Origin: an uncultured Candidatus Saccharibacteria bacterium
GTDB lineage: Bacteria; Patescibacteriota; Saccharimonadia; Saccharimonadales; CAYZZS01
Reading direction: 5' to 3'
Assembly: GCA_964483035.1 (NCBI GenBank)
Contig: CAYZZS010000004.1
Location: 10,081 to 74,080, forward strand
Length of the DNA: 64,000 bases
Each line of letters begins with the position of its first letter. Position 1 is the first letter of the stretch. Below the pieces are notes generated by a model. The model saw only the letters and a list, made by a program, of their open reading frames with translations, searched no databases and had not been told where the DNA came from. The position numbers and the translations under genes were made by a program. Of this stretch, positions 7,705 through 51,313 are shown piece after piece.

Positions 7705-8524
7705 CTGCTACAAAGATCAGATCGGGTGCAACAGCCTTTGTGCCGTACCAGAATGGCAGGTAAAGAGACATGTCTGCGCTAAGTGGGATTCGCTGTGGTT
7801 CGTACTCATTAAGCACAACTGGTTGTGCGATTGAGCCGTCGGCCATAGCGATGTGACTGGCGCTTTGACGGATGTTGCTGTAAACACGGACACCGTGGTA
7901 GTAGCCAACTTCCTCGTCAGCAGCACCCTTGATGTTGTCAAGGTAGGTGCGGATTTTGCCGAACTCTTCAGTGTTCAAGAACACGCTAATCATTGAGCGC
8001 GGTACACCATCGACCCAGTCGTTCTTAACGTTCTGGACTTTTTGGATGATTTCTTCTAGGCGCCCTTCAGGGTTGCTTGCCACGAATGTGTGCAATGCGC
8101 CCTCAGCAACAGCCTTGTTGAAGAATGCGTAGTCGAGTTCACGAACTACGGTATCGCCGTGGTCTTTAGTACGAGTGCTGATTAGGTTAGCAACAGTGTT
8201 CGCCTGTACGTCAAAGACGGTGATCTCCTCAGAAATTTCACGCTTGTTTTCGTAGGTGTTGACTGTCACCTTACCAGTGTTGGCAACTTTGTTACCTTCG
8301 CCGTTAGAGCGAGATGTACCGTAAGCCTGTGACTTTGATGTTGCGTAGCGCTGCACCTCAACGCTTCCAGCTCGTGGGTCACCACTTAGGCGCTGGTTTT
8401 TGACAAGACCCGAAAGAGCCTTGACTTGGATTGCTTCGATAAGACCACCGTAAGCTTCTTTCAGCTCATCTGGGTTTAGTCCGGCCTTATCGATAAAAAT
8501 GCTATAAGCATCTGTTCGTGCCAT
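7682..8524 (-). CDS. Major capsid protein
   Basis: 280 aa, immediately downstream of the scaffold gene. Position and size fit an HK97-fold capsid protein. Confidence 0.6.
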   Translation of the reverse strand: MARTDAYSIFIDKAGLNPDELKEAYGGLIEAIQVKALSGLVKNQRLSGDPRAGSVEVQRYATSKSQAYGTSRSNGEGNKVANTGKVTVNTYENKREISEEITVFDVQANTVANLISTRTKDHGDTVVRELDYAFFNKAVAEGALHTFVASNPEGRLEEIIQKVQNVKNDWVDGVPRSMISVFLNTEEFGKIRTYLDNIKGAADEEVGYYHGVRVYSNIRQSASHIAMADGSIAQPVVLNEYEPQRIPLSADMSLYLPFWYGTKAVAPDLIFVAGVESNES

Positions 8525-8543
8525 CTTTTTCCTCGTTTACTTG

Positions 8544-9071
8544 TTACAGCACGATTGAACCTTCGTATTTCGGCTCGTTGTTCGTGCCTTTTGATTTATC
8601 TTTTGGCGTTTCGCCCTTGAGTCGTTCGTTAACGCCTGCCTCAACTGCTTTTAGAAAGACCTTTTCAAACTTGTCGATGTTGTCCTTAGTTTTGTCAGGG
8701 TCAACGTCAACTAGAAAGTCCACTACGTCAGTTGAGATACCTTTTTCCTGTAGAGTTTCCCTCGCGTCAGCTCGGTTTTCTCGTAAGGTGATTTCGCGCT
8801 CTTTCGCGGCAGTCTCCTGCTCACGCTTTTTGCGCTCCTCGGCTTCCTTTTCCTCGGCTGACAACTTGGCTTGTCGCTCACGCTCTTCAAGTTCTTTAGC
8901 TAGTCGCTCTTCTAATTTCTTTTCAAGCCTAGCCTCTTTCTCGGCAAGCGTCTTTCTTAGCTGCTTGTCAAAGTCCTCTTGAGTAAAAGTTTTAGCCTTG
9001 GGGTCATCTCCCTTTTTGTCATCCTGCTGACCATCAGGATTAGGGTTGTTTTGCTTGTCTTGTTCAGACAT
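8544..9071 (-). CDS. Scaffolding protein
   Basis: 175 aa, highly charged K/E coiled coil (FTQEDFDKQLRKTLAEKEARLEKKLEERLAKELEERE). Confidence 0.7.
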   Translation of the reverse strand: MSEQDKQNNPNPDGQQDDKKGDDPKAKTFTQEDFDKQLRKTLAEKEARLEKKLEERLAKELEERERQAKLSAEEKEAEERKKREQETAAKEREITLRENRADARETLQEKGISTDVVDFLVDVDPDKTKDNIDKFEKVFLKAVEAGVNERLKGETPKDKSKGTNNEPKYEGSIVL

Positions 9072-13367: not shown

Positions 13368-14692
13368 TATTCATCATCCTCGTCAGATTCGTTAGTACCG
13401 AAGTTGCCCATCTTCATGCGTTCATCACGCTCTTTTTTAGCCTTTTCGACCACCTCAGAAGCGTCCTCAACAAATGACAGTTGCGCCACTAGGGTTTCGT
13501 CGTCTACTTTTCCGTCCAGATTGTTGATTATCTGCGAAGTCTCAAAGTCGTTCTTCGGCAGCGCTCTGCGGAATACTAACTTAATAGCGTCTACGTCTAC
13601 TTGGCTAATCTTGGACTTGTACTGAAGCATAGTCAGATACAGCTCTAGGCGATTGCGGAGTCCAGTTGCCAGTAAGCGTTCCTTTTTCTTGACGTTCTGC
13701 TCAAAGGCTAGGAGTTTATACAGAATCGACACGCCAGATGGTGCATTGCCAAAGGTTTCATCTGTAAGATCAGGCGTCTTGGAGAACTTGTGTATATCGG
13801 CGGCTATGGTCTTGCGCAGGACGTCAGCATCAGCTTCATCGATGTTCTTGATGAGGTACTCGGCCTTAGAGCCTTCCGGCAAGCCAATAGTGCGATTTTT
13901 CTTTATACCTTCCTGATCTTCTTTCGTCAGCCTAGCGCCGTAAAACGCTAGTATTGCGTCTACCAGCTTCTCTCGGTCTAGTACTCGGTCAGATTGCAGA
14001 ATGTTGTATGCGTCTATCAAAGAAGTGACAGGCTCGTAGTCACCTTTCAGGCGGCGATTATTGAAATAGTGGATCACAGGCACTTCACCAAAGAAATGCT
14101 CTCTGTCGGGAGTATCGGGGACTTCCGTAAGGTCTGAGCCAGCTAGCCTACGGTGATGCACATGCGTTGGCGTCCAGATGGTTATGTCGTAATCGTCTTT
14201 GCTGTTGTTTATCTGGGCGTAGTACAGCGCTGCCATCTTTTCGTGCTTGAATGTGTCATCGTAAATAACGATGGTGTTGTAGACGCTTAGTTTAGAGCTG
14301 AGGATCTCGGAATCTTCATCAACGTAGACGGTCTCAAAAGCCTGTCCAAACATTGACAGATCTTCGGCTATGTCAGTATCTAGCTCCTCAATGCTCTGGG
14401 CTTTATAGGCGTCTATAAGAGGAGTGATGTCATCCTTGCCACCGGCTTTATAATCAACAGGGTTACCCACTAAATACCCAGTGTTGATAGAGGTGATGTA
14501 GTCAGCGAAGTTATGGATTGCCAGCAGCGGATTAGGGGATTGCCTGTCCATTTCTGGCTTGTCATCCATATACGATTCAAGACGCTTGAATATCTTGATG
14601 TTGTTCTTGTTGGCTTTTATCGCATCGGCGATGACTTCACCGTTTAGAATGTCGGTGTCTTTCGGTAGGGTGTATATGGTGCGCTTTTTCAT
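13367..14692 (-). CDS. Portal protein (SPP1 gp6-like)
   Basis: 441 aa, directly downstream of the large terminase, with an acidic C-terminus. Confidence 0.8.
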   Translation of the reverse strand: MKKRTIYTLPKDTDILNGEVIADAIKANKNNIKIFKRLESYMDDKPEMDRQSPNPLLAIHNFADYITSINTGYLVGNPVDYKAGGKDDITPLIDAYKAQSIEELDTDIAEDLSMFGQAFETVYVDEDSEILSSKLSVYNTIVIYDDTFKHEKMAALYYAQINNSKDDYDITIWTPTHVHHRRLAGSDLTEVPDTPDREHFFGEVPVIHYFNNRRLKGDYEPVTSLIDAYNILQSDRVLDREKLVDAILAFYGARLTKEDQEGIKKNRTIGLPEGSKAEYLIKNIDEADADVLRKTIAADIHKFSKTPDLTDETFGNAPSGVSILYKLLAFEQNVKKKERLLATGLRNRLELYLTMLQYKSKISQVDVDAIKLVFRRALPKNDFETSQIINNLDGKVDDETLVAQLSFVEDASEVVEKAKKERDERMKMGNFGTNESDEDDE

Positions 14693-25792: not shown

Positions 25793-26035
25793 CTAAATGT
25801 CACGGTCAAAGAACCGGAACAGCTCGTAGGCCGCCCGGTATGAAATGATGCTGATGGCACCTACAAGCGGGTAGCTGAAATAGCTCGGCATCTGGATGTT
25901 CAGGTATACCCAAACTCCACAGATAACCAGCACAATCAAGCTAACTGCCTGCACGAAGCGCTCTACGTTCCTTGTGACACGTATGGACGTATCCTTTGCC
26001 GTCTTTGCCTGTTGTCTGATGTTGTACATAACCAC
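25793..26035 (-). CDS. Small two-TM membrane protein
   Basis: 80 aa with two hydrophobic segments. Confidence 0.45.
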   Translation of the reverse strand: MVMYNIRQQAKTAKDTSIRVTRNVERFVQAVSLIVLVICGVWVYLNIQMPSYFSYPLVGAISIISYRAAYELFRFFDRDI

Positions 26036-26039
26036 CCTC

Positions 26040-26270
26040 CTAAATCTCGTCTTGGCAGTCCTCGCAGATCGTCACCGTCTTGTGGTACGTGCTGTGTTCG
26101 CCAGTGGCGGCGGAGTCTACCTCGATTGCTTGTTCTCTTGTTAATTCGTGCTGGCAAGCGAACTGCCAGTCGTCGTTTAGTCTCCACTCACTCGGCAGAT
26201 GCAGGACCTGAATCCGCTTTACAGGTGGTGGAAAATATATATTTGATATGTTTTTGAAAATTGCATGCAT
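26040..26270 (-). CDS. Small hypothetical protein
   Basis: 76 aa, with a GGAGG SD 8 nt upstream. Confidence 0.45.
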   Translation of the reverse strand: MHAIFKNISNIYFPPPVKRIQVLHLPSEWRLNDDWQFACQHELTREQAIEVDSAATGEHSTYHKTVTICEDCQDEI

Positions 26271-26459
26271 GTTATCGCCTCCAAAAACTTTTGCCCCAAA
26301 GTTGCTTTTGCATTGAATTACCCTCCTTATGGCCTTACTGACCAGCGGGCGGGCAAGTTATCGCGGCTTTAAGATCACTTATAAAGCTTCTTGCCCACCA
26401 GTCGGTCAGTAAAACCGACTTAGTAAGGTCATGTCCTCTCGCAAAAGAGGCACGACCTG

Positions 26460-27008
26460 TTAGTACCAATGACCCATATCCCGTCCGTTGATTGGCACTC
26501 TCGCTTTCCAGTGGGCTAAGGCTTTGGCTGGCGTGCTGTAGCGTTCGGCTATATAGTCGATTCCCCACTCTATTTGACTCTCCACACTTGATGGATCGGG
26601 GATTTTGCTGCACGGCCACGCTTGGGGGATGCCGCAGGCGGCGCTGTGAGGGTTCTTGGCGTTCGGATTCCATCCGCTTTCTCTATGCCACAGCTCCTCT
26701 AGTGCCTCCCACTGCGTCCCATGCCAGCCCTTTGCCTCGGCTTTCTGTTTAGCGAGGGATTTTGGGTCGGTTGGTACTGGTTCCGGCTTCGGCTCGGTCT
26801 CAGTTTTCACGGCTTCCACTTCGACAATGTTTGGTACTTGAAGTGGAGCTTGTGTTTCCTGTGTCACTTGTTCCGCCAGAGTTATTTCCTCTGCCGTAGG
26901 TTGAACCGAATTGTTAATGTTCGCCGGAGTTTGCCGGATGAGGAGTACGAATATTCCGCATACGGCCAGTAGCTTTATGACCACTGATACCCCCTCTGAG
27001 GACTCCAC
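26460..27008 (-). CDS. Membrane-anchored lytic transglycosylase-like protein
   Basis: GTG start, an N-terminal TM segment, then ESGWNPNAKNPHSAACGIPQA (an SLT-type E-S-G...Q block). Confidence 0.55.
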   Translation of the reverse strand: MESSEGVSVVIKLLAVCGIFVLLIRQTPANINNSVQPTAEEITLAEQVTQETQAPLQVPNIVEVEAVKTETEPKPEPVPTDPKSLAKQKAEAKGWHGTQWEALEELWHRESGWNPNAKNPHSAACGIPQAWPCSKIPDPSSVESQIEWGIDYIAERYSTPAKALAHWKARVPINGRDMGHWY

Positions 27009-27126
27009 ATCCTCATAAATCTCCCGTTTTGCCCTATCCTGTCGCTGCCATTCTCCTTGAGAAGTGGTAGCCGATAGCTAGCTCGGTGGTTTGTCCGATG
27101 GAGCCACAAACGCTAATTCCCGACTC

Positions 27127-27158
27127 CAAAAAGAAAAACCCCGCCGTTAGTGGCGGGG
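27127..27158 (-). terminator. Strong minus-strand intrinsic terminator upstream of the first leftward gene
   Basis: The minus strand reads CCCCGCCACTAACGGCGGGGTTTTTCTTTTT. Confidence 0.6.
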
Positions 27159-27178
27159 TCTATCCCTGTTATGCTATT

Positions 27179-27198
27179 TACATTTTATAAAAAATGTA
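27179..27198. promoter_or_regulatory. Perfect 8-bp inverted repeat (TACATTTT-ATAA-AAAATGTA), operator-like
   Basis: Read directly. It lies between the plus-strand TTGACA promoter and the leftward genes. Confidence 0.45.
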
Positions 27199-27206
27199 CT
27201 TTAGTA

Positions 27207-27235
27207 TTGACACAAGGTCATTTATTTGCTAAAAT
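27207..27235 (+). promoter_or_regulatory. Near-consensus sigma70-type promoter (TTGACA-17 nt-TAAAAT)
   Basis: TTGACA is at 27207-27212 and TAAAAT at 27230-27235. Confidence 0.6.
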
Positions 27236-27239
27236 CGCA

Positions 27240-27588
27240 ACTCGTAAGTCACAGTATGTGTTCTTACGCACCTTATACCCCCAATTCTAACAGTTTCGGT
27301 CCTTTGGATCGGAGCATATGTTAGGTGTTTTAGAGCGTGCCAATATAAGTTGTTACCCTCCACTTATTGTGGCGCATCCGCTCGTGTAGCGTGATAGCGC
27401 TCTAAAACAAATTATTCCCTTTAACCCCGCGTTCCCCCCTCGTTGTAGTTGAGGCTTGGCGGTAACGACGGACATACCTGAGTGGGCCTAAAGCTGACTT
27501 TGCGAGACAGCTTTAGGAGGCCTTCAAGGTGGGTTGAAGGGTGTAAAGAGCCTCCAGCGGTGCCCACCCCCTCTGGAGGCTCTTTTTA
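27240..27588 (+). ncRNA. Candidate ~350-nt structured ncRNA 2 at the phage/host junction
   Basis: No credible ORF. Verified helices: 27243-27248/27263-27268, 27327-27337/27398-27408 (11 bp perfect), 27487-27496/27508-27517 (10 bp perfect), 27521-27527/27534-27540. A terminator closes the unit. Confidence 0.55.
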
Positions 27589-27590
27589 TT
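27547..27590 (+). terminator. Intrinsic terminator of ncRNA 2
   Basis: AGAGCCTCCAG...CTGGAGGCTCT forms an 11-bp stem followed by TTTTT. Confidence 0.75.
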
Positions 27591-27847
27591 AGAATTACAC
27601 TTATTAGATTCATCTGTTAGGTGCTCTATTCCGAGTGGTATGTCGCTTCGGCATCAGCATTCACTGCATACTTGGTGAGATAATAATTCGGGCTTTTTGT
27701 GGAAATCTTCTTTGTAATGACGAATGAGTCCTCATTATCCTCACATGGATAACCCCCCTTGCCCCAAGGCTGGCGCAGGTGTAGGGAGTTATCTGGCTCA
27801 GACGACTATTACGGGCAGCAAATATTGTAAAATATTTAGAAATATGG

Positions 27848-27853
27848 TATAAT
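27848..27853 (+). promoter_or_regulatory. Extended -10 promoter (TGGTATAAT) giving a leaderless or near-leaderless mRNA
   Basis: The TATAAT ends 3 nt before the first ATG (27857) and 6 nt before the second (27860). Confidence 0.45.
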
Positions 27854-27856
27854 GAT

Positions 27857-28450
27857 ATGATGAGTGTTGATCAGTACTTGAGTGATAGGCGACATGAGTC
27901 AGTCACGGATATCAGGGTGTTTCAGGATGTGGATCGTGCTGCAATGCGGCAGTGCTTTGATGGTGGACTTATTAAAATTGACGCTCGACTGAGAGGGCAT
28001 GAGTTGCCCTCTATTAATGAGATTGCTGATGGTGCGATTAATTGGTGGAGCTTAGAAAAGCACTATCCAAGAATTGCAGCAATCGGGGGTGCTGTTATTC
28101 GTTGCGCAGATGGAAAAGCGCGCCCAATTGTGGAATCGGTCAAGTATGAGACTCAGCAGGCGGTCCATGTTGATAGCGCCATATCTCACGGCATAACCCT
28201 TTTGCTGCCGTTGCGCGGTGCTGACGCTACGTTTTACTATGGCGGTAGCAAGTTTGCACATTACGAGGATGCTGATAGCTCAATCGTATACGGCGTAGGG
28301 GATGTTCTGGTATTGCGCCAGGCCATTGAGACAATTGATGGTAGGGTCCCAGAGGTGCCTATGCGTAGGCCTTGGCACGTCGGTGTTGCAGAAGGCACGC
28401 GAGACTTGTTGGCAATAGATTTACATGCAGAGCATTGGCGGTTGCCTTAG
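27857..28450 (+). CDS. Hypothetical protein (possible double-stranded beta-helix / HxD-containing)
   Basis: 197 aa containing AVHVDSAISHG. I recognise no family. Whether it belongs to the phage or the host is unclear. Confidence 0.55.
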   Translation: MMSVDQYLSDRRHESVTDIRVFQDVDRAAMRQCFDGGLIKIDARLRGHELPSINEIADGAINWWSLEKHYPRIAAIGGAVIRCADGKARPIVESVKYETQQAVHVDSAISHGITLLLPLRGADATFYYGGSKFAHYEDADSSIVYGVGDVLVLRQAIETIDGRVPEVPMRRPWHVGVAEGTRDLLAIDLHAEHWRLP

Positions 28451-37263: not shown

Positions 37264-37338
37264 GGCCTCATCGTCTAGCGGTTAGGACACCGGGTTCTCA
37301 TCCCGGCAACCGGGGTTCGATTCCCCGTGAGGTCACCA
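37264..37338 (+). tRNA. tRNA-Glu (anticodon CUC), CCA encoded
   Basis: Cloverleaf built by hand: acceptor GGCCTCA/TGAGGTC, anticodon stem CCGGG/CCCGG with loop TTCTCAT, and T arm CGGGG-TTCGATT-CCCCG. Confidence 0.85.
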
Positions 37339-38833
37339 AAAGAGACTCATTTGACATAGATGGGTCTTTTTTCATGCTTGCTAAGGTGTAAAGTGTGCTT
37401 AATTTGGGCGTTCGAAATTTATTTGTAGTCAGGTCGTATTCAAGCCCTTCTGGAAAGACTAGACGTTGGTAGATTATTTGATGTTCTATCGAGGCGTTAC
37501 TCCAAATTCGTGGTGCGTTCGACATAAAACGCATCGCATAATCTATTGCATCAGTTTTTAGTTCAGATAAAGAGCCGATACTGGTAAGGTCTTCCTGTAC
37601 AGCATCAGACTCAATCTTTATCTTAGCTACAAGGTCCTTCTTCTCATCTACTGTTATCTGTCCTGCAACAAGCATTTCTACAACCTTATTTCTTCGCTCT
37701 GTAAGCTGTTCTAAGACCTTGTGGAGCTTCTTTTGTTTACTGCTTAGGGTTTGCGTCTCTTCACGCCAGACACGTACTATTATCTCTTTTAAGAACTTCT
37801 CCATATCTGGGTCAGGAGTTAGTGATGACAGCAGTTGCAAGAATTGTTCATGTAGCTCTATTGTCTGTACAGATGGGACATGACACCTAGAACAGTGGTA
37901 ACGCGGAGAACGCTTACCCGATCCACCGACTGGACTACTGCCAGTCATATACTTATTACAATTTGCACACACGAGGAAACGTCTCAGAGGAAATTCAGGA
38001 TTATTCTTCTTGTATGTAGCAGCAGTGTTTTTGTTGCTTCTCAGTAGCTCTTGATTACGGTGAAATGTTGCAGGAGTAATAATCCCTTTGAATTTTGAAG
38101 GTATGAGCTGACCCTCTGTGTGACTACTTTGTTCAAGTCCTGCATAGATAGGATTACGCAACATCTTGCTTAGTGCCTGTATCTGCATCGGCTTGCCTGT
38201 AGCAGATTTCAACCCGATACTTTCACACAGCTTAATAAGACTAGCGATTGTGTAGGTACCTGTTGCGTATACTTCTAATACAGTAACCACCTTATCTGCT
38301 ACCCCCTCTACAGGTGCAAGCGTGGATTTCTCAAGTACATCTCTCACATTTCTCAGGCCGTGAGGTGCTTTACTCATACGCCAGCCCTCTTTTGCGTGGG
38401 CTTTCATGTTGTCTTTCACACGGACAGACTTAACCTTGTTGTCATGTTGAGCTAGTACAGCTTCTAAGTTCTGGATAAGCTCCTCATTAACGCTATCCTC
38501 AACACCTGAGTTGATATTCTTGTACTGAACACCTAATTTAGATAACAAGGTGCGTAGTGCGAAAAAGTCTGAAGCATTACGTGTTAGACGGTCTGTCTGG
38601 TATGTGATGAGATAGTGTATGTTACCCTTGTTCGCTTCAAGATACGCTAACATCTCTTTCATGGCAGGACGGTCGAGGGTTTTGGCCGATACACCGTCAT
38701 CGTGGTAGATTTCTTTAACCAGTACATCATTACGTGATGCCCAATCCTGACATAGCTTTTGCTGGATATCGAGACTAGCACCCTCTACTTGTTGAGTAGT
38801 TGATACCCGAAGATAAATAACTGCTTTTTTCAT
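37298..38833 (-). CDS. Large serine recombinase (integrase)
   Basis: The resolvase-type N-terminus is KKAVIYLRVSTTQQ. A recombinase domain, a zinc ribbon (CANCNKYMTG...RYHCSRC) and a coiled coil follow. Confidence 0.9.
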   Translation of the reverse strand: MKKAVIYLRVSTTQQVEGASLDIQQKLCQDWASRNDVLVKEIYHDDGVSAKTLDRPAMKEMLAYLEANKGNIHYLITYQTDRLTRNASDFFALRTLLSKLGVQYKNINSGVEDSVNEELIQNLEAVLAQHDNKVKSVRVKDNMKAHAKEGWRMSKAPHGLRNVRDVLEKSTLAPVEGVADKVVTVLEVYATGTYTIASLIKLCESIGLKSATGKPMQIQALSKMLRNPIYAGLEQSSHTEGQLIPSKFKGIITPATFHRNQELLRSNKNTAATYKKNNPEFPLRRFLVCANCNKYMTGSSPVGGSGKRSPRYHCSRCHVPSVQTIELHEQFLQLLSSLTPDPDMEKFLKEIIVRVWREETQTLSSKQKKLHKVLEQLTERRNKVVEMLVAGQITVDEKKDLVAKIKIESDAVQEDLTSIGSLSELKTDAIDYAMRFMSNAPRIWSNASIEHQIIYQRLVFPEGLEYDLTTNKFRTPKLSTLYTLASMKKDPSMSNESLLVTSRGIEPRLPG

Positions 38834-39057
38834 AGTGATGTTATTCCTGCGCTTTCAATAGTAGCATTATTTTTGATATTTTTCGAACTAATATACGTGC
38901 GAATAGAAAGCCTGACTACTGTTTCAGTAGCTCGTATTAGTACTTCTAACTCTTCTTTGGTTAGTTCTTTTGATATTTGGCCTAAGAGCTTTCGAGCTTC
39001 TTTGACCGTTATGACCTGCTGGTCATTTATATTGAGTGGTTCTTTTTGTTGTTCCAC
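38830..39057 (-). CDS. Small protein upstream of and coupled to the recombinase (possible DNA-binding or directionality factor)
   Basis: 75 aa; overlaps the integrase start as ATGA. Confidence 0.45.
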   Translation of the reverse strand: MEQQKEPLNINDQQVITVKEARKLLGQISKELTKEELEVLIRATETVVRLSIRTYISSKNIKNNATIESAGITSL

Positions 39058-39160
39058 TGTAAATCCTGTCAGACCGACTGAAGATTGTTAGAGCCTTCAG
39101 TGACAAGACACTCTAGCGAGGAGATAATTTATATTTTGTGGTTTGCCCTAGAATCGAAAA

Positions 39161-39221
39161 AGGATAAATCCTAGTGGCAAACACCCTCTTCGCAAAAAGG
39201 AGGTTTGTCAGGATTTATCCT
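39161..39221. promoter_or_regulatory. Two copies of a 12-bp palindromic site (AGGATAAATCCT / AGGATTTATCCT), centres 49 bp apart
   Basis: Read directly at 39161-39172 and 39210-39221, in the divergent intergenic region of the island. Confidence 0.5.
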
Positions 39222-39379
39222 TTGATTACACACCAAACGAGTGATGTGCAAGCAATGTTTTTCGACCACATTACAATATTTATATTATACCATATTCTGT
39301 TTACATCTGTTCTTTCGTTAGCAAAGTGGCCTATCTGTCATACTAGTAATAGAGGTAATGCGAAAACAAAGGGAGTTAT

Positions 39380-39610
39380 ATGGAAATAAAAAAGGCAGCA
39401 GGAAGACCACCTAAAGTCACTTACAAAACGATGTTAAGGCTTGCGGATGCATTGCAGCACAACAGCACGATCCATGAAGCCTGTCGTTACGCAGGAATAA
39501 GTCGCAATACGTACTACTCATATCTAAATAATGAGGTGTTCGCCGAAAAAATGGCTAGAGCTAAAGAAAACCAGAGTAAAGTGGTGTTTAGTTTCAGTAC
39601 ATATTTCTGA
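39380..39610 (+). CDS. Small HTH DNA-binding protein
   Basis: Contains GRPPKVTYKTMLRLADALQHNSTIHEACRYAGISRNTYYSYL. Confidence 0.55.
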   Translation: MEIKKAAGRPPKVTYKTMLRLADALQHNSTIHEACRYAGISRNTYYSYLNNEVFAEKMARAKENQSKVVFSFSTYF

Positions 39611-39721
39611 AATTTCAGTTGATTTCGCTGTGTTTTTAAGATATTTGGTGTCACAAAAGTGGAAGAAAAAACTCTCTTGATTACATAGTTATTCATAGGG
39701 TGATGTGCCATAATAGTCCTT

Positions 39722-40201
39722 ATGGATTTGAAAGAAATAATTGAGGTGTGGGAGAAGTACGTTGCTACTATAAAAGACTGGCAAGCTCTTGTTGGGCGTA
39801 AAAAACCGAAGATAACACAGTGTGGACCAGTGTACGAACTTAAATCACCTATTCCTAAATGGTACGGATCACTTGCGATTAGTGACATGAGAGAGCTTGC
39901 TGTTGCATACCCCCACTACCATAAGAATGGCGAAACAGAAGTCTACTTCGTTATTCAAGGTACAGGACTAACAGTTGTTGGCGGAAAAGAGGTAAAGCTA
40001 AAGAAGGGTTCTGTAGTAGTTACACCCCCTAACACGACACACTTCACATTCCCTAAGAAAGACTTAGTTATGCTTGTTGTTAATCTGCCAAGATTCAAAG
40101 CTGATAATGTTGTTGAGCTGGAAGATTCTGACCCTGAGGTAAAGTTCGACAAAGACCAATACGAAGAACTGTCATTGAAACATCTCGGACAAATATTATA
40201 A
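39722..40201 (+). CDS. Cupin-domain protein
   Basis: Contains HYHKNGETEVYFVIQGTGLTVVGGKEVKLKKGSVVVTPPNTTH. The extended -10 box TGCCATAAT ends 7 nt before the ATG, so the mRNA is probably leaderless. Confidence 0.6.
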   Translation: MDLKEIIEVWEKYVATIKDWQALVGRKKPKITQCGPVYELKSPIPKWYGSLAISDMRELAVAYPHYHKNGETEVYFVIQGTGLTVVGGKEVKLKKGSVVVTPPNTTHFTFPKKDLVMLVVNLPRFKADNVVELEDSDPEVKFDKDQYEELSLKHLGQIL

Positions 40202-40379
40202 AAATGGCGTTAAAGGGTGTAAATTTGGCGGAAAATTCTGTAGCCACTTGCTTAGGGTTTCTGATAAGTAAATAGTGAACAGCATTTAATGCTCTCTGTG
40301 ACGCATCTGGAGCACTCTGGACAGGTTTTTGGGCGTAAAATGAGTCGTAATTGCTCGCTGAGGTAAGTATACTTACTTT

Positions 40380-41279
40380 ATGTGGTTCGCACTCTCTATT
40401 CTTGCATTGCTCATGTTGTCTGGCAGACGTACCGCCGAAAAGAAGGCTGCGACTGGCATAGACAGTATGGCGATGGCTTGGCTACAACAAGCAGTTGCGT
40501 TACCGCTTATCGTATTGACACTTTTCTTTGCTAGATTCTACTGGCCTAGCGAACTACCCCTTTTATTCTGGGAACTTATGGTTATCTATGTATCCCTGCA
40601 AGCTATATATCTTTATTGTTACTATAAAGCTGTCTCTATTGCTGATATTAGTTTTGTTGCACCTCTCATGACTTTGTTCTCGGTTGGAAACATGATTGGA
40701 GCTTACATTATATTGGGTCAAGTGCCATCGTTATCTGGTGTTATCGGGGCAGCTTTTATTATTTCTGGGGCATGGATAATATCTCGTGCGAAAAAACATG
40801 GTACCGTCGAATCAATAACAGCCCATAAGAAAGCCCTCATGCTAGTAATAGTTGCAATCATTGTTTGTAGCATCTTCTCGAACATAGAAGTAAAAATGCT
40901 GGAAATGAGCAATCCAATAAGCTACAACTTTTACACCTCAGTTCTAACAGTGCCTTTTGTGATTCTGGTTACAGTGATACTTTTAAGAAGCCGAAAGCAG
41001 AATGGCTTAATTTATTGGAAGTCGGTCAATAAAAGTGTCAGAAGCCATGCATGGCCTTTAGCTATTGTCGGCGTAACTTACACTGTAAATATGTTGGCTA
41101 CCTATCAAGCTAAGGTGATGGCTCCGAATCAGGCATATGTCGGTGCTATAAAGGCAGCCTCTGTAATACCTGTCGTTATTCTTGGGGTACTGTTTTTTCA
41201 AGAAAAGGTATCTCGAAAGCAGTGGCTAGGCATTGCTTGTATGCTAATAGGGCTTGCTCTGATTGCTCTTAATGTTTAG
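40380..41279 (+). CDS. EamA/DMT-family transporter
   Basis: 299 aa with about 10 hydrophobic segments in two halves. Confidence 0.65.
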   Translation: MWFALSILALLMLSGRRTAEKKAATGIDSMAMAWLQQAVALPLIVLTLFFARFYWPSELPLLFWELMVIYVSLQAIYLYCYYKAVSIADISFVAPLMTLFSVGNMIGAYIILGQVPSLSGVIGAAFIISGAWIISRAKKHGTVESITAHKKALMLVIVAIIVCSIFSNIEVKMLEMSNPISYNFYTSVLTVPFVILVTVILLRSRKQNGLIYWKSVNKSVRSHAWPLAIVGVTYTVNMLATYQAKVMAPNQAYVGAIKAASVIPVVILGVLFFQEKVSRKQWLGIACMLIGLALIALNV

Positions 41280-41314
41280 CTATTCGTGTCTTAATTGGGA
41301 CTCGTGGTTACTGA

Positions 41315-41683
41315 TTAGAGCCAAGGAGGACCAGAGTAGCGAGTGGTCGTACTGAATACAATCTCGTTATCATCAAAGACATGACGAGCTGGTATTAGTG
41401 CCGATGCGGATTCCATAAGCCCGTTGAAGGTTTCTGTATATTCGTCACGAGCTTTGGCTGCTTCACTTAATACTTCAGTAACACCTTCTTGCATAGGGTC
41501 TGGATTGCGTGACAATAATTCTGCGATGGCTTTTGCACTTTCTATTGCCTTTTGGGCTCTTAAATCATAAACGGCATTAGCGGCTAAGGCTATTTCATAG
41601 CCCTGAACCATCTCATCGTGTTGCGTAACAGGTAATTCTTTACTCATAAAGTATATACTAGCATATTTCCTAGTATAAAGCAA
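41315..41683 (-). CDS. Hypothetical protein
   Basis: 122-aa ORF. Confidence 0.5.
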   Translation of the reverse strand: MLYTRKYASIYFMSKELPVTQHDEMVQGYEIALAANAVYDLRAQKAIESAKAIAELLSRNPDPMQEGVTEVLSEAAKARDEYTETFNGLMESASALIPARHVFDDNEIVFSTTTRYSGPPWL

Positions 41684-41929
41684 ATTTTTTGTAGTGTTAC
41701 AAAAGCCATAAAGGGTGTATGTTGTATAATATAAGTATTGAGCCCAGTCGTTGACTAGCTACTAGTACACTAATAACAAAAATATACGCCGAAAACATAA
41801 CAATAGAGTAGATAGCAGTAGTTCTACTCTAAGCTTGAATGTATCCTGCTACTGTTATTGCCCTCATGTAGCCGTATACCTCAAGTAATTCAGTACAGAT
41901 TGCGTTCAATTTCGACTTTACATAGTTCA

Positions 41930-41978
41930 CCAATGAAAGGCACCCACATTGTGTGGGTGTTTTTCATTGGTTGTTTTG
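41930..41978 (+). terminator. Long near-perfect hairpin followed by a T-rich run
   Basis: CCAATGAAA-GG-CACCCAC attgt GTGGGTG-T-TTTTCATTGG, followed by TTGTTTTGG. Confidence 0.5.
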
Positions 41979-42137
41979 GCGGTACCCGGGTTGCCGCAAT
42001 CCGCAAGGCAAGCTTCTATTTTAGGAAATTCCGTCCATTAAGCCTCGATAACTTCCACTTTTTATAGCTGCCTGCCAATTGTTGTTTTTATTGTGCTTGG
42101 GTATGATTAGGCTTAAGAATTATTACATAGGAGGGAT

Positions 42138-43878: not shown

Positions 43879-44154
43879 TTAGCGGCCTAAGTCGTACTGA
43901 ACCCGGACCAGTGTCCAGATGAGCTGCTCGGGATCGAACTTCAGCCGATACGTCGCCTGCCCGTCCGTCATATCGAACAGTCGCACCAGCCGCCTGCCCT
44001 TTTGGACAAGGTACTGCATGCCGGATTCCAGGAATGTCACCTCCTTATTGTCGTATTCGATGCGCTTCGGGAAGCTTTTAAACTGCTGGTTTCCCCGGAA
44101 GTACAAGGCGGTGACCGCAACCTCTTTGTTGATGATTGTCGTGTTCATATTCAA
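43879..44154 (-). CDS. Hypothetical protein
   Basis: 91-aa ORF. Confidence 0.5.
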   Translation of the reverse strand: MNMNTTIINKEVAVTALYFRGNQQFKSFPKRIEYDNKEVTFLESGMQYLVQKGRRLVRLFDMTDGQATYRLKFDPEQLIWTLVRVQYDLGR

Positions 44155-48198: not shown

Positions 48199-48533
48199 GA
48201 CTTGCTCCGGTAGCGGTGGATGACCGCGGTGACGACGCCCCATATCTCTGCCTGAGGCGCCATCTTTGATGGGAGAGATACGGCGAATGTACCGCCCTCC
48301 CACCACGCCACCAGGTCGGTTTTACGGGGCGTTAGGGCGCGGTCCACGATGGCGATATCGCCGCTGTATATCCCGGCACCGTTCCATTCGTCGCCTTCAA
48401 TGCGCATCAGGAAAGTACTGGCGCTGTTTCGGACAAGCAGCTGATTGAGATCCAGGAAGCGCGCCTTGCCGTCCGCTGCCGGGTTGGGAAAACCCCGGTG
48501 AATGGATACGCCGGTAGTATTCATGTCTTTCAT
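48195..48533 (-). CDS. UmuD-like S24-fold protein lacking the Ser/Lys catalytic dyad
   Basis: I moved the start to the ATG at 48533 (SD AAGGAG). GFPNPAAD...LDLNQLLV...GDIAIVD aligns with E. coli UmuD from memory, but GDSM is replaced by GDEW and the Lys position by Ser-Leu. Confidence 0.7.
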   Translation of the reverse strand: MKDMNTTGVSIHRGFPNPAADGKARFLDLNQLLVRNSASTFLMRIEGDEWNGAGIYSGDIAIVDRALTPRKTDLVAWWEGGTFAVSLPSKMAPQAEIWGVVTAVIHRYRSKS

Positions 48534-48606
48534 AGTGAGCTCCTTCACAGACAAATTGTTCAATGAGATTTATAGATGTTTAATGAATGTATGGAGGATG
48601 TGGATG

Positions 48607-49281
48607 ATGTGCGGACGATATACGCTATACGAGACGGAGGATTTGGGTGAACGGTTCAAGCTTGCTGCCCGGCCGCAGTTTGTCTCTCAGGACAATTACA
48701 ACGTCGCGCCGAGGCAACGGTTGCCAATCGTATACCAGGAGGACGAGAATCGGGTGGCCGAGCTGATGCAATGGGGCTTTATCCCCTTTTGGGCCAAGGA
48801 TCCATCCAAGGAGAGGCGGCCGATTAACACGCGGGCTGAATCTGCGTTTACCAGCCCCATGTGGCGCGAAGCGGCCAAATCGCACCGGGCATTAGTGCCG
48901 GCGCGGGGCTTCTATGAGTGGCGAAAAGCAGCTGATAATCGTAAGGTGCCGTATTTCATCCGTCCAAAAGACCAGGAACTGTTTGCGTTCGCCGGACTCT
49001 ATAGCGTATGGAATGATGTCGAGGGACATCCCCTCTATACGTTCTCGATCATAACGACTCGGGCGAATAAGGATATGGAGCCGATCCATGACCGTATGCC
49101 AGTGATACTTTCGCCGGAGCAGGAAGCGCTCTGGCTGGATCCTGCGCACCGCGACCAAGCGCTACTGGCAGAGCTGCTTGAACCGTACGAGGACGATAGA
49201 CTTACGATTATAGAAGTGAGCAAGGATGTAAATTCACCGCGCAACAATGACAAACACCTCATTGAAGCGGTAGACGAATAA
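48607..49281 (+). CDS. yedK: SOS-response-associated peptidase (SRAP/YedK-like abasic-site sensor)
   Basis: I moved the start so that the N-terminus is MCGRYTL (Cys2). ...PINTRAES... follows. Confidence 0.85.
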   Translation: MCGRYTLYETEDLGERFKLAARPQFVSQDNYNVAPRQRLPIVYQEDENRVAELMQWGFIPFWAKDPSKERRPINTRAESAFTSPMWREAAKSHRALVPARGFYEWRKAADNRKVPYFIRPKDQELFAFAGLYSVWNDVEGHPLYTFSIITTRANKDMEPIHDRMPVILSPEQEALWLDPAHRDQALLAELLEPYEDDRLTIIEVSKDVNSPRNNDKHLIEAVDE

Positions 49282-49539
49282 AGGACCCTGACCACTGGTG
49301 TTAATAAGCCTGTAGGTAGAAATCCGGGTTTTGACCTGGAAGTACCTGCATTGCTAATTGTTAGTATAGGATATTTTTTCTAAATAAACGTATTAGAATG
49401 TTCACTTTCGTATCGGCATCTTCTTTTGCTGATTTTGTGTGTCGAAAAAACGATCTTCTTTCTGCGCTATAAGATGTATACTAAGCCATTATCCCACTTC
49501 TCTGCCACCTTTTGTGGCGATAAAAGGATGGCGCCAAAA

Positions 49540-49970
49540 ACGCCAGGCGACGATCAAACTTCTACTCGCCCCAGCCCTGCCGAAGCCGCGCCGTCACAGT
49601 GCAAGCATCTCCGCTATTCCCTTATTACTTCGGCGGAGCAAGTGACGGCTTGATTCGGCTCCGGTAGGGCTGGGGCGAATCGGTTTGATCGAGCCTGAGG
49701 CACAATGGCAATCCCGCTAGAGCGGGATTATTTTTCGTCCCGCCTCAGCGGGGCATTGCAGGAGTCAGGCTCAGGTAAACCGGCGCAAGTCCGTCTGACT
49801 GCCACCCGAGTCATTGGCTGCTGCCAAGTCCTGTTTAAGTAGTCGAAGAACCAAACAGGACCGACCGAAGGGAGTCCAGCAGCCACGGGTGGAAGTGGCG
49901 GTGCTTGCCGCAGAGTTTAGCTGCCGCCTGTTGCTTTTGGCGTCACCTTTTTGCCAACGCAAAAGGTGAC
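49540..49970 (+). ncRNA. Unidentified, densely structured non-coding locus (one or two RNAs); strand tentative
   Basis: A 139-nt irregular hairpin spans 49552-49690, including a 12-bp perfect core (49567-49578 with 49666-49677). A terminator-like hairpin lies at 49710-49735. Further nested helices: GAGCCTGA/TCAGGCTC, CCACCCG/CGGGTGG, GGCTGCTG/CAGCAGCC, CCTGTTT/AAACAGG. Confidence 0.5.
49710..49735 (+). terminator. Intrinsic terminator-like hairpin inside the non-coding locus
   Basis: Reads AATCCCGC-TAGA-GCGGGATT-ATTTTT. Confidence 0.55.
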
Positions 49971-49999
49971 AAAAGAAAGACTTATTAATTCAATTTTGG

Positions 50000-51313
50000 C
50001 TATTGATAGGTAACCTTGCTGGCAGCATCGATAACCGTTACCCAGGCCTGGCCTGGATTAAGCTTAATGACGTTGCCGTCCAGATCCTTGAAGGTGAACT
50101 GACTCTTGCGATTAGGCTTGTGCCACTTGCCCTCTTTCATGACACCGTCCTGAAATATGAAGACGGTGTTGCTGCCAGTCGTCTCATAGGTGGTGTGCAG
50201 ACGGTCAGCCGCCAGGCCTTTGGTGCTTACAAGGGCTATGACAACTTTCGGCGAAATCTGGTCACCAGAACGCTCGTCGGTGTGCGGCCGGCCGGCCATG
50301 ATGCGCTTATAGGAGTTGGATTCGGCATTATACTCAAATCTGACATTGTAATTAGCGCTGGAGATATCCAGGCCGATATTTTTGGCATTCGGAGTTTCAC
50401 TGGCTTTTTCTTCTTTTCGCTCCCACGGGGTGAAGTTGCTGCCGGTATAGCCCTTGGAGAGTGCGACGTCGCGGAGCGCTGGAATGCCGGAGTACATGTT
50501 ATGCGGCGCGAAGCGGCTGGAGACACGGTGATAAGCACCGCTGTGATGGAATTGATCAAGGTCGCGCACGCCAAGGGAGCCGATTTCGGACAGTGCTTCT
50601 GGGCTGCCGCCGACATGGGCGTATGCGGCGTCAAAAGCCAGCGTCCAGTCCAGGTAGTATGGGCGAGCACTCCGGATAGGTCCGATGTAGTCTGGTTCAG
50701 TGTCCTGGAAGAGGGCGAGGAATCTGGTAATACCGCCTTCGGCCACAGCTTCGAAGACTACGCCTGCGTCCTTAAGTCCGGCCTGTGGCCGGGCATCAGG
50801 GCTGTTCTCTATCATGACGCCGATGATCGGGCGCTTGGCAATTTCTGGATCGACCTGTAAGCCGGTAAGCGGTGATGCGACAGTGGTGGGCTCTTCCTTT
50901 TTCTCATGCGGTGCGAAATAGGTTTCCGGGGGCGGTGGCGCAAAGCTAACTTTTTTATACAGCGCGAATGCACCGGCGCCGGTTATTCCAAGCACCGCGA
51001 TCAGGGCGGCGATAAACAGTGCCCACTGTTTTTTCGAGAAGTTTTTTGGAAGAAAATCTACCCGCTTAAACAGTTTGTCCTTGAACGATGTTTTTGTATC
51101 GTTTGGTGTTGGCTCGTCTTTAACTTGCGGCTCTACTGCCGCTGGCTTGTTTTCTTGCTTTGGGGCGACAGCGGGAGTCCGCTGAGGAAGCGGCAGCTCA
51201 CGGGGGGTAAGGCTGTCGTCCAGTTGTTCGGGCTTCGGCTGTGGCCTGACCCGCTGCACCGGATCAATAAAGGCGCGTCGTGGGCGCGGCTTAAAGTCGT
51301 CTTTCATACGCAA
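50000..51313 (-). CDS. DUF3048-like secreted/membrane-anchored protein
   Basis: A Pro/Lys-rich N-terminus, one TM segment, then ...VFEAVAEGGITRFLALF..., as I recall for DUF3048. Confidence 0.55.
   Translation of the reverse strand: MRMKDDFKPRPRRAFIDPVQRVRPQPKPEQLDDSLTPRELPLPQRTPAVAPKQENKPAAVEPQVKDEPTPNDTKTSFKDKLFKRVDFLPKNFSKKQWALFIAALIAVLGITGAGAFALYKKVSFAPPPPETYFAPHEKKEEPTTVASPLTGLQVDPEIAKRPIIGVMIENSPDARPQAGLKDAGVVFEAVAEGGITRFLALFQDTEPDYIGPIRSARPYYLDWTLAFDAAYAHVGGSPEALSEIGSLGVRDLDQFHHSGAYHRVSSRFAPHNMYSGIPALRDVALSKGYTGSNFTPWERKEEKASETPNAKNIGLDISSANYNVRFEYNAESNSYKRIMAGRPHTDERSGDQISPKVVIALVSTKGLAADRLHTTYETTGSNTVFIFQDGVMKEGKWHKPNRKSQFTFKDLDGNVIKLNPGQAWVTVIDAASKVTYQ

Follow-up and report, generated by a model that had tools for sequence, protein, structure and literature searches.

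Two convergent genes in a 64,000-nucleotide stretch of saccharibacterial DNA (hereafter the window) are separated by a gap, positions 49282-49999, which carries no gene and is densely base-paired. Does this gap hold one or more structured RNA genes, as an earlier note on the same DNA proposed, or an element of another kind? We find that most of it is a 484-bp compound palindrome (the core), known from one species only among the sequences searched. By alignment, the core and an adjoining AT-rich spacer occupy the place in which most related loci carry a histidine kinase (HK) and a response regulator (RR). We tentatively read core and spacer together (49386-49979) as a species-specific non-coding insert of foreign or mobile origin. 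It would resemble a miniature inverted-repeat transposable element (MITE) or a cluster of repetitive extragenic palindromes (REPs; such a cluster is a BIME), would be passively transcribed, and would serve as a hairpin barrier between the convergent genes. The probability of this reading lies, in our judgement, somewhat below even.

The gap and its structured core

The gap is bounded by the + strand stop of a gene for an SOS-response-associated peptidase (SRAP) at 49281 and the - strand stop of a DUF3048 gene at 50000, and both its extent and its lack of genes agree with the earlier description. Nine stop-free peptides from the gap gave no Pfam match in any frame at E <= 10, and the nine stop-free translations, concatenated, had no match at E <= 0.01 among 5.8 billion proteins. 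According to the gene calls of a same-species contig, the gap (719 nt there) is the longest of 18 intergenic spacers, most of the others being shorter than 200 nt. The same locus is recorded in at least seven independently assembled contigs from two sets of sequencing runs, so that an assembly artefact is ruled out; across the aligned stretches, identity of these contigs to the window is 98.3-99.96%. The species occurs in the runs SRR7082968/76/82/84 and SRR23005556/559/864. The gap falls into three parts, namely an ancestral regulatory stretch, a spacer and the core (Table 1).

The core consists of imperfect 58-nt terminal inverted repeats surrounding three mutually unrelated hairpin domains (A, B and C), the whole forming a closed multi-branch fold. 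The two arms are matched at 41 of 58 positions (71% complementary) and close the entire element; the match extends to about 64 nt if one indel is allowed. The ends of the arms read 5'-TG...CA-3', and terminal inverted repeats are a property that the element has in common with MITEs. Fifteen of the 17 arm mismatches are transitions and two are transversions. Each arm contains a local hairpin, that of the left arm being GCCACCTTTT/AAAAGGATGGC at 49504-49532, and the two terminal hairpins share CACCTTTT...AAAAGG, a unit found nowhere else in the window or in the fetched loci. Domain B contains two tandem CCCGC...GCGGG hairpins, which can alternatively re-pair as one long hairpin. The local hairpins at the ends likewise compete with the closing stem, and a further alternative pairing joins 49601-49615 to 49894-49908. 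Domains A and C were considered as copies of one unit; their sequences are unrelated and the idea was rejected. Pairing, in long near-perfect helices, takes up about 73% of the bases of the fold. None of the hairpin loops is a GNRA or UNCG tetraloop, and the element has no tandem repeats of the type III antitoxin kind.

All six elements listed in the earlier note (a candidate promoter, two end hairpins, an irregular hairpin and two branched domains) are present where it placed them, and its helices stand; the largest feature, the pair of 58-nt closing arms, had been missed. The interval it gave holds as the extent of the gap, whereas the first 104 nt lie outside the structured element and belong, by alignment, to the ancestral regulatory stretch.

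The minimum free energy of 49495-49980 on the + strand is -250.2 kcal/mol, against -175.9 +/- 7.1 kcal/mol for dinucleotide shuffles (z -10.4). The - strand gives z -12.5, and folding with DNA parameters gives z -11.1. Each domain is significant individually, with z-scores of -9.8 (+) and -8.4 (-) for A, -4.5 and -4.7 for B, and -4.3 and -4.4 for C; the spacer is unstructured (z -0.07 and -0.31). The core is the most structured of all 480-nt stretches of the window, and it holds the top-ranked 300-nt window among 482 drawn from 107 ORF-free gaps in 81 Saccharibacteria loci. The earlier description of the locus as exceptional and densely paired is thus upheld, and the element is a real, statistically extreme orphan.

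Long, near-perfect, non-homologous hairpins are a recurrent phenomenon in the intergenic DNA of Saccharibacteria. Two related loci have intergenic hairpins of this kind, one of about 175 nt in L088 (about 13430-13610; gap z -9.2) and one of about 150 nt in L020 (about 3730-3880; gap z -9.3). Both are near-perfect, AT-rich, and unrelated to each other and to the core. Because such gaps hold unrelated long hairpins, fold stability alone is weak evidence for an RNA gene in this group.

Table 1. Features of the gap, its flanks and related loci (window positions unless a locus is named).
Feature	Coordinates	Strand	Basis or description
Structured core, compound palindrome	49496..49979		484 bp, 57% GC; fold z-scores and GC
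Left terminal inverted repeat	49503..49560		local hairpin 49504-49532 and - strand terminator-like site
Domain A, irregular hairpin	49551..49691		141 nt, ~49 bp, 16-nt apical loop, 12-bp perfect core; inverted repeats I2, I10, I16
Domain B	49691..49772		closed by GAGCCTGA/TCAGGCTC (49691-49698 / 49765-49772)
Canonical intrinsic terminator (predicted)	49710-49735	+	AATCCCGC-TAGA-GCGGGATT-ATTTTT, inside domain B
Domain C, branched hairpin with nested helices	49775..49913		139 nt
Domain C helices	49798-49808/49886-49896; 49815-49823/49877-49885; 49828-49836/49853-49861
Right terminal inverted repeat	49914..49971		perfect 10-bp hairpin at 49942-49970
Hairpin of the right arm	49942-49951 / 49961-49970		GTCACCTTTT/AAAAGGTGAC, 10 bp, perfect
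Spacer, species-specific	49386..49495		AT-rich, 36% GC
Ancestral regulatory stretch	49282..49385		alignment with L092, L007, L017, L086, L087, L045, L088, L072
SRAP gene, left convergent neighbour	48607..49281	+	Pfam SRAP, E = 7.7e-75
DUF3048 gene, right convergent neighbour	50000..51307	-	Pfam DUF3048 N- and C-terminal domains
Promoter-like motif sites	window 49282-49385; L044 13219-13296; L037 13096-13175; L072 13636-13711; L017 13032-13113; L088 13258-13337; ~15 further loci
~80-aa gene	window 43897-44142; L017 13234-13482; L044 13423-13665; L079 3306-3557	- (window)
Three-gene module	L093 4481-6672; L094 4481-6672; L095 4482-6678; L092 679-3056

The slot of a two-component system

We compared the locus with 80 DUF3048 loci (one genome per species), with the closest relative (L007) and with four loci that have the closest SRAP homologues. 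The common gene order is DUF3048, HK (about 515 aa), RR (about 130 aa), regulatory stretch, UmuD and UmuC; many relatives also have a leader and an 80-aa gene between the regulatory stretch and UmuD. This order holds in nearly all of the 40 loci in which both DUF3048 and UmuD were located. The DUF3048 and HK genes are only 2-20 nt apart in the loci read directly, so DUF3048, HK and RR appear to form one operon in which DUF3048 comes first.

Compared with these loci, the spacer and core occupy exactly the HK-RR slot of most related loci in which the slot was readable. SRAP stands at the same place in L092 (70% identical protein), where HK and RR are still kept. Two relatives are without HK and RR and have no comparable element: L086 has a 197-bp gap, and the gap of L079 folds at z +0.3. 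Since these two lost the pair without acquiring such an element, we regard the core as an insertion and not as a by-product of the deletion. The gaps of SRAP-bearing relatives in the same slot are not strongly structured (z -1.4 in L017 and -1.1 in L072). We also considered a decayed remnant of the HK and RR genes and rejected it, given that tblastx against the HK-RR region of L007 gave chance-level matches (E >= 0.3) and Pfam gave none.

Structured gaps follow the RR gene in L075 (13524-14104) and L076 (13138-13912). By eye these contain putative tRNA genes, and they also hold strong terminator hairpins; the slot would therefore be a hot spot for different kinds of insertion. In L025, inverted 88-nt arrays built of the 8-mers CTTTATAA/CTTTCAAC and of their complements stand on either side of the RR gene (8511-8909), at 8407-8492 and 8904-8987, a layout that would permit inversion or excision of the RR gene.

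Searches for known families and for relatives

At the gathering score, Rfam 15 identified only two tRNAs in the 64-kb window. With the threshold relaxed to E <= 10, the best matches in 49200-50100 scored 11-18 bits against thresholds of 41-112 bits, and the best E-value (0.14) belonged to an unrelated viral internal ribosome entry site. RNase P, SRP, 6S, tmRNA, OLE, GOLLD, ROOL, HEARO, raiA, ribozymes and riboswitches gave no Rfam match at this threshold, and ARAGORN found no tmRNA. The core is thus outside every curated RNA family, and the Rfam and ARAGORN results exclude RNase P, SRP, 6S and tmRNA as its identity. The earlier note had pointed to strings resembling RNase P and SRP RNA that did not fit either molecule; neither RNA is matched, and the resemblance is coincidental.

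Searches of related loci covered 1.4 Mb of Saccharibacteria sequence. In about 85 related or SRAP-linked loci, blastn, nhmmer, tblastx and local alignment with shuffles found no homologue of the core other than itself. Single-sequence covariance models of A and of B plus C likewise recovered only self matches over the related loci, and the spacer has no homologue there. We found no match to the core in phage or plasmid records (blastn, "distant" setting), and neither the arm-consensus pattern nor three internal 19-20-mers matched any viral contig. The arm-consensus pattern matched one unrelated purine-rich metagenome contig, in a scan that missed this species' own locus and so was without power for further copies. 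The earlier note had held that an interval both unconserved and untranscribed would speak against a structured RNA; the first half applies, as no related locus that we examined has the element in this slot and none of the sequences searched gave a homologue.

Strand, promoters, terminators and strain variation

Does the sequence favour one strand, as expected if the core were an RNA gene? A 9-of-12 sigma-70 scan of both strands of 49100-50200 gave no promoter-like site. Canonical promoters are in use elsewhere in the genome, as exemplified by TTGACA-17-TAAAAT at 27209-27237. The promoter suggested earlier, TTGTTA-17-TAAATA at 49360-49388, overlaps the ancestral conserved stretch and fails the scan, and the conserved -10-like box at that spot reads on the opposite strand. 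G·U pairs in the whole fold number 11 on the + strand and 15 on the - strand, and the arm transitions are divided between seven that give G·U on the + strand and eight that give it on the - strand, the pattern which two drifting repeat copies would give. Both strands fold equally well, G·U pairs are balanced and sigma-70-like promoters are lacking; either strand is therefore equally favoured, with no sign of strand-specific or RNA-level constraint. With no promoter, strand asymmetry, GNRA or UNCG loops, or homologue, the earlier identification of the interval as one or more RNA genes is not borne out.

Terminator-like sites are more frequent in the region than expected (5 against 1.4). At 49710-49729 an 8-bp stem with five G-C pairs and a 4-nt loop is followed by ATTTTT, which by sequence is a predicted intrinsic terminator on the + strand. 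This is the only canonical one in the element, and it lies mid-element. A weaker - strand terminator-like site runs from 49545 down to 49529, at the far end of the element, and is followed by TCCTTTTATC. Neither end hairpin of the core is followed by a U-run, and the structured part is not bracketed by a promoter and terminator of its own, as an independent small or non-coding RNA (ncRNA) gene would be. No terminator separates the DUF3048 stop from the element.

The first structure past the SRAP stop is a conserved hairpin at 49311-49352, inside the ancestral regulatory stretch. Its outer stem, TGTAGGTA/TACCTGCA, is partly conserved, and in L007 it shows one compensatory change (TGTACGTA/TACGTACA). 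The hairpin folds at -23.5 kcal/mol on the + strand and -15.3 kcal/mol on the - strand. The + strand thus has an advantage of 8 kcal/mol in this genome. Given its position as the first structure past the stop, the hairpin probably ends the SRAP transcript.

Three strain SNPs occur in the gap across seven sequences: one in the spacer, one in a loop of A and one in B. The roughly 1,400 nt of immediately flanking coding DNA have none, so there is no sign of constraint on the gap stronger than that on the adjoining coding DNA. The core has two differences in 484 nt, as compared with 17 at 1,008 four-fold sites of the flanking genes (P = 0.012), a comparison to be read in the light of strong SNP clustering and of immediate flanks that have no SNP at all. 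Strain differences are sharply clustered at 50927-50942, 48291-48339 and 48492-48561, and at umuC 47500-47602 in L001. In one run, within DUF3048, every third base carries a SNP, and a block of umuC is divergent. Recombination has made mosaics of the strains, which undermines simple diversity-based tests of selection here.

A mobile insert or an RNA

The species-specific insert that we tentatively prefer has counterparts among known bacterial elements. REP and BIME elements of Proteobacteria are, like the core, imperfect palindromes at gene 3' ends and often between convergent genes. Their units of opposite orientation pair together, with both strands alike, and when co-transcribed they stabilise mRNA 3' ends and act as partial terminators. 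However, REP units are 20-40 nt long, occur in tens to hundreds of copies and are linked to RAYT transposases, whereas in the core the resemblance is limited to the two terminal hairpins, each of the three inner domains being unique. Bacterial MITEs (Correia/NEMIS, ERIC, RUP, Nezha) are also non-coding, lineage-specific intergenic insertions with imperfect terminal inverted repeats; they form long hairpins when transcribed and may carry terminators. MITEs are usually 100-300 bp long, multi-copy and flanked by target-site duplications, whereas the element is 484 bp long and has three independent internal palindromes.

Several observations weigh against such an insert. There is no flush target-site duplication, only a loose TTAT at 49489-49492 and 49982-49985, a few bases off the ends. 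As to the multi-copy property that defines MITE and REP families, no second copy of the core was found in the 64-kb window (blastn with word size 7; hairpin and arm patterns), in same-species contigs or in the 1.4 Mb of related loci. A parent insertion sequence was not found either, and three unrelated internal palindromes are unlike the remains of an internally deleted one. A multi-branch fold in a GC-rich island (57%, against 36-39% in the AT-rich spacer around it) would equally be expected of a structured RNA gene. Finally, the helix SNP C49703T in domain B keeps its pairing, as U·G, on the + strand only.

For the insert we infer a foreign or mobile origin, co-transcription and a barrier role. 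It fills the slot in which relatives carry HK and RR downstream of DUF3048. Its transcription would probably be passive, the DUF3048 mRNA running on into it as a 3' tail on the - strand; such read-through is likely because no terminator precedes the element. These transcripts would meet their first terminator-like site only at the far end (49545-49529), and then the ancestral hairpin. Read-through on the + strand from SRAP would meet the ancestral hairpin (49311-49352) first and the terminator at 49710-49735 next. With terminator-like sites placed for each strand, the element would stop or shield transcripts from both sides. By analogy with REP/BIME, Correia and ERIC elements, the stacked hairpins could form a two-way transcription barrier between the convergent genes and, by blocking 3'-exonucleases, protect 3' ends.

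The same anatomy can also be read as a new, lineage-restricted structured RNA, about 480 nt long and with its own function. Its source would be either a weak spacer promoter (+ strand) or the processed 3' UTR of DUF3048 (- strand). We consider such an RNA doubtful but deserving of serious attention, for the fold is extreme in every sub-domain as well as overall, the core is a GC-rich island within AT-rich intergenic DNA, and three unrelated hairpin domains under a long closing stem form a multi-branch structure rather than a single palindrome. Moreover, the seven or more assemblies, which derive from two sets of runs, keep the sequence almost unchanged, the element contains a canonical + strand terminator, and C49703T is wobble-compatible on the + strand. 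Large RNAs such as OLE, GOLLD, ROOL and raiA are similarly several hundred nucleotides long, multi-branched, intergenic and GC-rich relative to their surroundings. These RNAs, however, are conserved across many species, show covariation and have characteristic tertiary motifs. The core has no relatives that we could find, and hence no covariation support; protein genes stand in its slot in relatives. Its high degree of pairing in near-perfect helices, without GNRA or UNCG loops, is unlike the known large bacterial RNAs, and neither a sigma-70-like promoter nor G·U asymmetry points to a strand. The + strand terminator is also awkwardly placed: it sits mid-fold, so that a + strand RNA ending there could not form the closing stem. 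The more specific proposal that an RNA of about 480 nt, with its own function, replaced the two-component system at the end of the DUF3048 operon in this one species, coming from the operon 3' end or a non-canonical promoter, seems to us rather less probable again.

Other explanations have considerably less in their favour. The core could be a site acting at the DNA level that belongs to, or was left behind by, an integrated element with a single-stranded stage: an origin of transfer, a single-strand origin or a folded recombination site. Folding with DNA parameters gives an equally extreme result, the strands are equivalent, and 15 of the 17 arm mismatches are transitions, which yield G·T-type wobbles on one strand or the other. 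The layout also recalls the intergenic region of filamentous phages, which spans about 500 nt with five hairpins, and more generally the single-strand origins of rolling-circle plasmids, in which some 300-500 nt of consecutive hairpins act in single-stranded DNA. Yet the element has no gene for replication, a relaxase or a recombinase beside it and no phage or plasmid genes in its vicinity; the phage and plasmid collections gave no match, tandem repeats were not found, and the surroundings are syntenic core chromosome. Even the TrwB/HerA-like neighbour is a core gene, found beside DUF3048 in the related loci whose gene calls were read. We therefore hold a DNA-level site to be improbable. A locus resembling a type I toxin-antitoxin system such as hok/sok, in which a long, tightly folded mRNA with paired 5' and 3' ends carries a small ORF, is very improbable. 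The size of about 480 nt, the long-range end pairing and the neighbouring SOS genes (umuDC and SRAP) recall hok/sok-type mRNAs, which are about 400 nt long, highly folded, closed over long range and often orphans near stress genes; type I loci are typically orphans in general. But of the 14 ORFs of at least 20 aa overlapping the gap, none has a hydrophobic stretch long enough to span a membrane, and none has a Shine-Dalgarno sequence, so that a plausible toxin is missing; the one 24-aa ORF lies outside the fold, and the sigma-70 scan found no antisense promoter. Hardly any probability remains for a known housekeeping RNA, another curated large RNA (OLE, GOLLD, ROOL, HEARO or raiA) or a decayed HK-RR remnant. 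Short look-alike strings are all that speaks for these, against the lack of any match from Rfam at E <= 10, ARAGORN, Pfam, or tblastx with the closest relative. A retron, an IS200/IS605 element or an IscB guide RNA would be expected to adjoin a reverse transcriptase, TnpA/TnpB or IscB gene, and no such gene lies next to the element.

Flanking genes and other features of the window

Homologues of the right neighbour, DUF3048, carry the names Candidatus Saccharibacteria or Saccharimonadales, and the best non-self match is only 59% identical. On this basis the window belongs to an isolated lineage of Saccharibacteria (TM7, Patescibacteria). The neighbours at the locus are UmuC, UmuD, SRAP, DUF3048 and a HerA/TrwB-like ATPase.

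The SRAP gene lies in a 259-codon ORF that begins at an upstream ATG (48502), and 48502-48606 is an over-extension of the gene. Because the catalytic Cys must be residue 2, the true start is the Met-Cys at 48607 (MCGRY...). The Pfam match begins at residue 36 of the long ORF, and the 224-aa product, recorded in 13 contigs, is the only form on record. A three-gene module recurs that comprises a Y-family polymerase (about 412 aa), an 88-aa protein and an SRAP about 70% identical to that of the window. The contigs carrying it differ in context, one being labelled Ktedonobacteraceae and two adjoining a Replic_Relax gene, and this recurrence suggests that the module moves between phyla.

In relatives the regulatory stretch directly follows the RR gene, upstream of the small SOS-linked gene and umuDC, and the window's copy gives weak nhmmer and blastn matches at the equivalent spot. 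Its promoter-like boxes include a TATAAT/TATACT-like box read on the strand opposite to SRAP. A promoter-like motif, cAGACTTTATAA-N(about 10)-CATACTYCGGTCACTG, is conserved after the RR gene in more than 20 Saccharibacteria loci. A hairpin and a TATAAT-like box come before it, and it is followed by a leader of 84-611 nt and a small gene that precedes umuDC. In the L072 and L092 leaders we saw, by eye, a GTAC-N4-6-GTAC palindrome that recalls certain LexA boxes; a LexA-box-like GTAC-N-GTAC palindrome is absent from the 64-kb window. Of the sequences searched, 27 show linkage between umuDC and the conserved gene of about 80 aa (consensus ...INQ.V.VNAFYF...GLQYL.QKGQ..IR.F.MTDG..TYRLR....WTL.G). 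In most of them this gene precedes umuD; in the window and in L007 it follows umuC. Within the spacer, a 24-codon ATG ORF at 49398-49472 has no Shine-Dalgarno sequence and is probably not a gene.

A candidate RNA gene that looks better than the core is found at 27209-27595, within an 848-bp ORF-free gap (27009-27856). The perfect sigma-70 promoter already mentioned (27209-27237, + strand) is followed by about 340 nt folding at z -6.8, with a canonical terminator at 27545-27590. The candidate has a perfect 12-bp stem, TGTTTTAGAGCG/CGCTCTAAAACA, and no Rfam match; the stem string is reminiscent of a Cas9 repeat:anti-repeat duplex. The cumulative GC skew has its minimum near 26-27 kb, at this large ORF-free gap (window about 26000-27900). 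The minimum may reflect a replication origin, or simply a change of gene orientation; at about 27747-27754 there is a string, GTTATCCA, that partly resembles a DnaA box. A low-GC island (37264-42000; 39-42% against about 52%) starts directly after a tRNA-Glu gene (37264-37338) and may be an integrated element.

Implications

The genomes of Saccharibacteria measure about 1 Mb and contain hardly any spare DNA. Some 600 bp of maintained non-coding DNA is unusual in this group, and more so at a place where relatives keep a signalling system. In practical terms, the ancestral regulatory stretch is now set apart from the new insert, and the start of SRAP has been corrected. A mobile palindromic insert would suggest that MITE- or BIME-like elements reach these epibiont genomes and go along with gene loss. 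An RNA, instead, would be a rare case of a large lineage-specific RNA within the candidate phyla radiation, and were the RNA of about 480 nt at the operon end to prove real, it would be among the very few large ncRNAs specific to the reduced genomes of that radiation.

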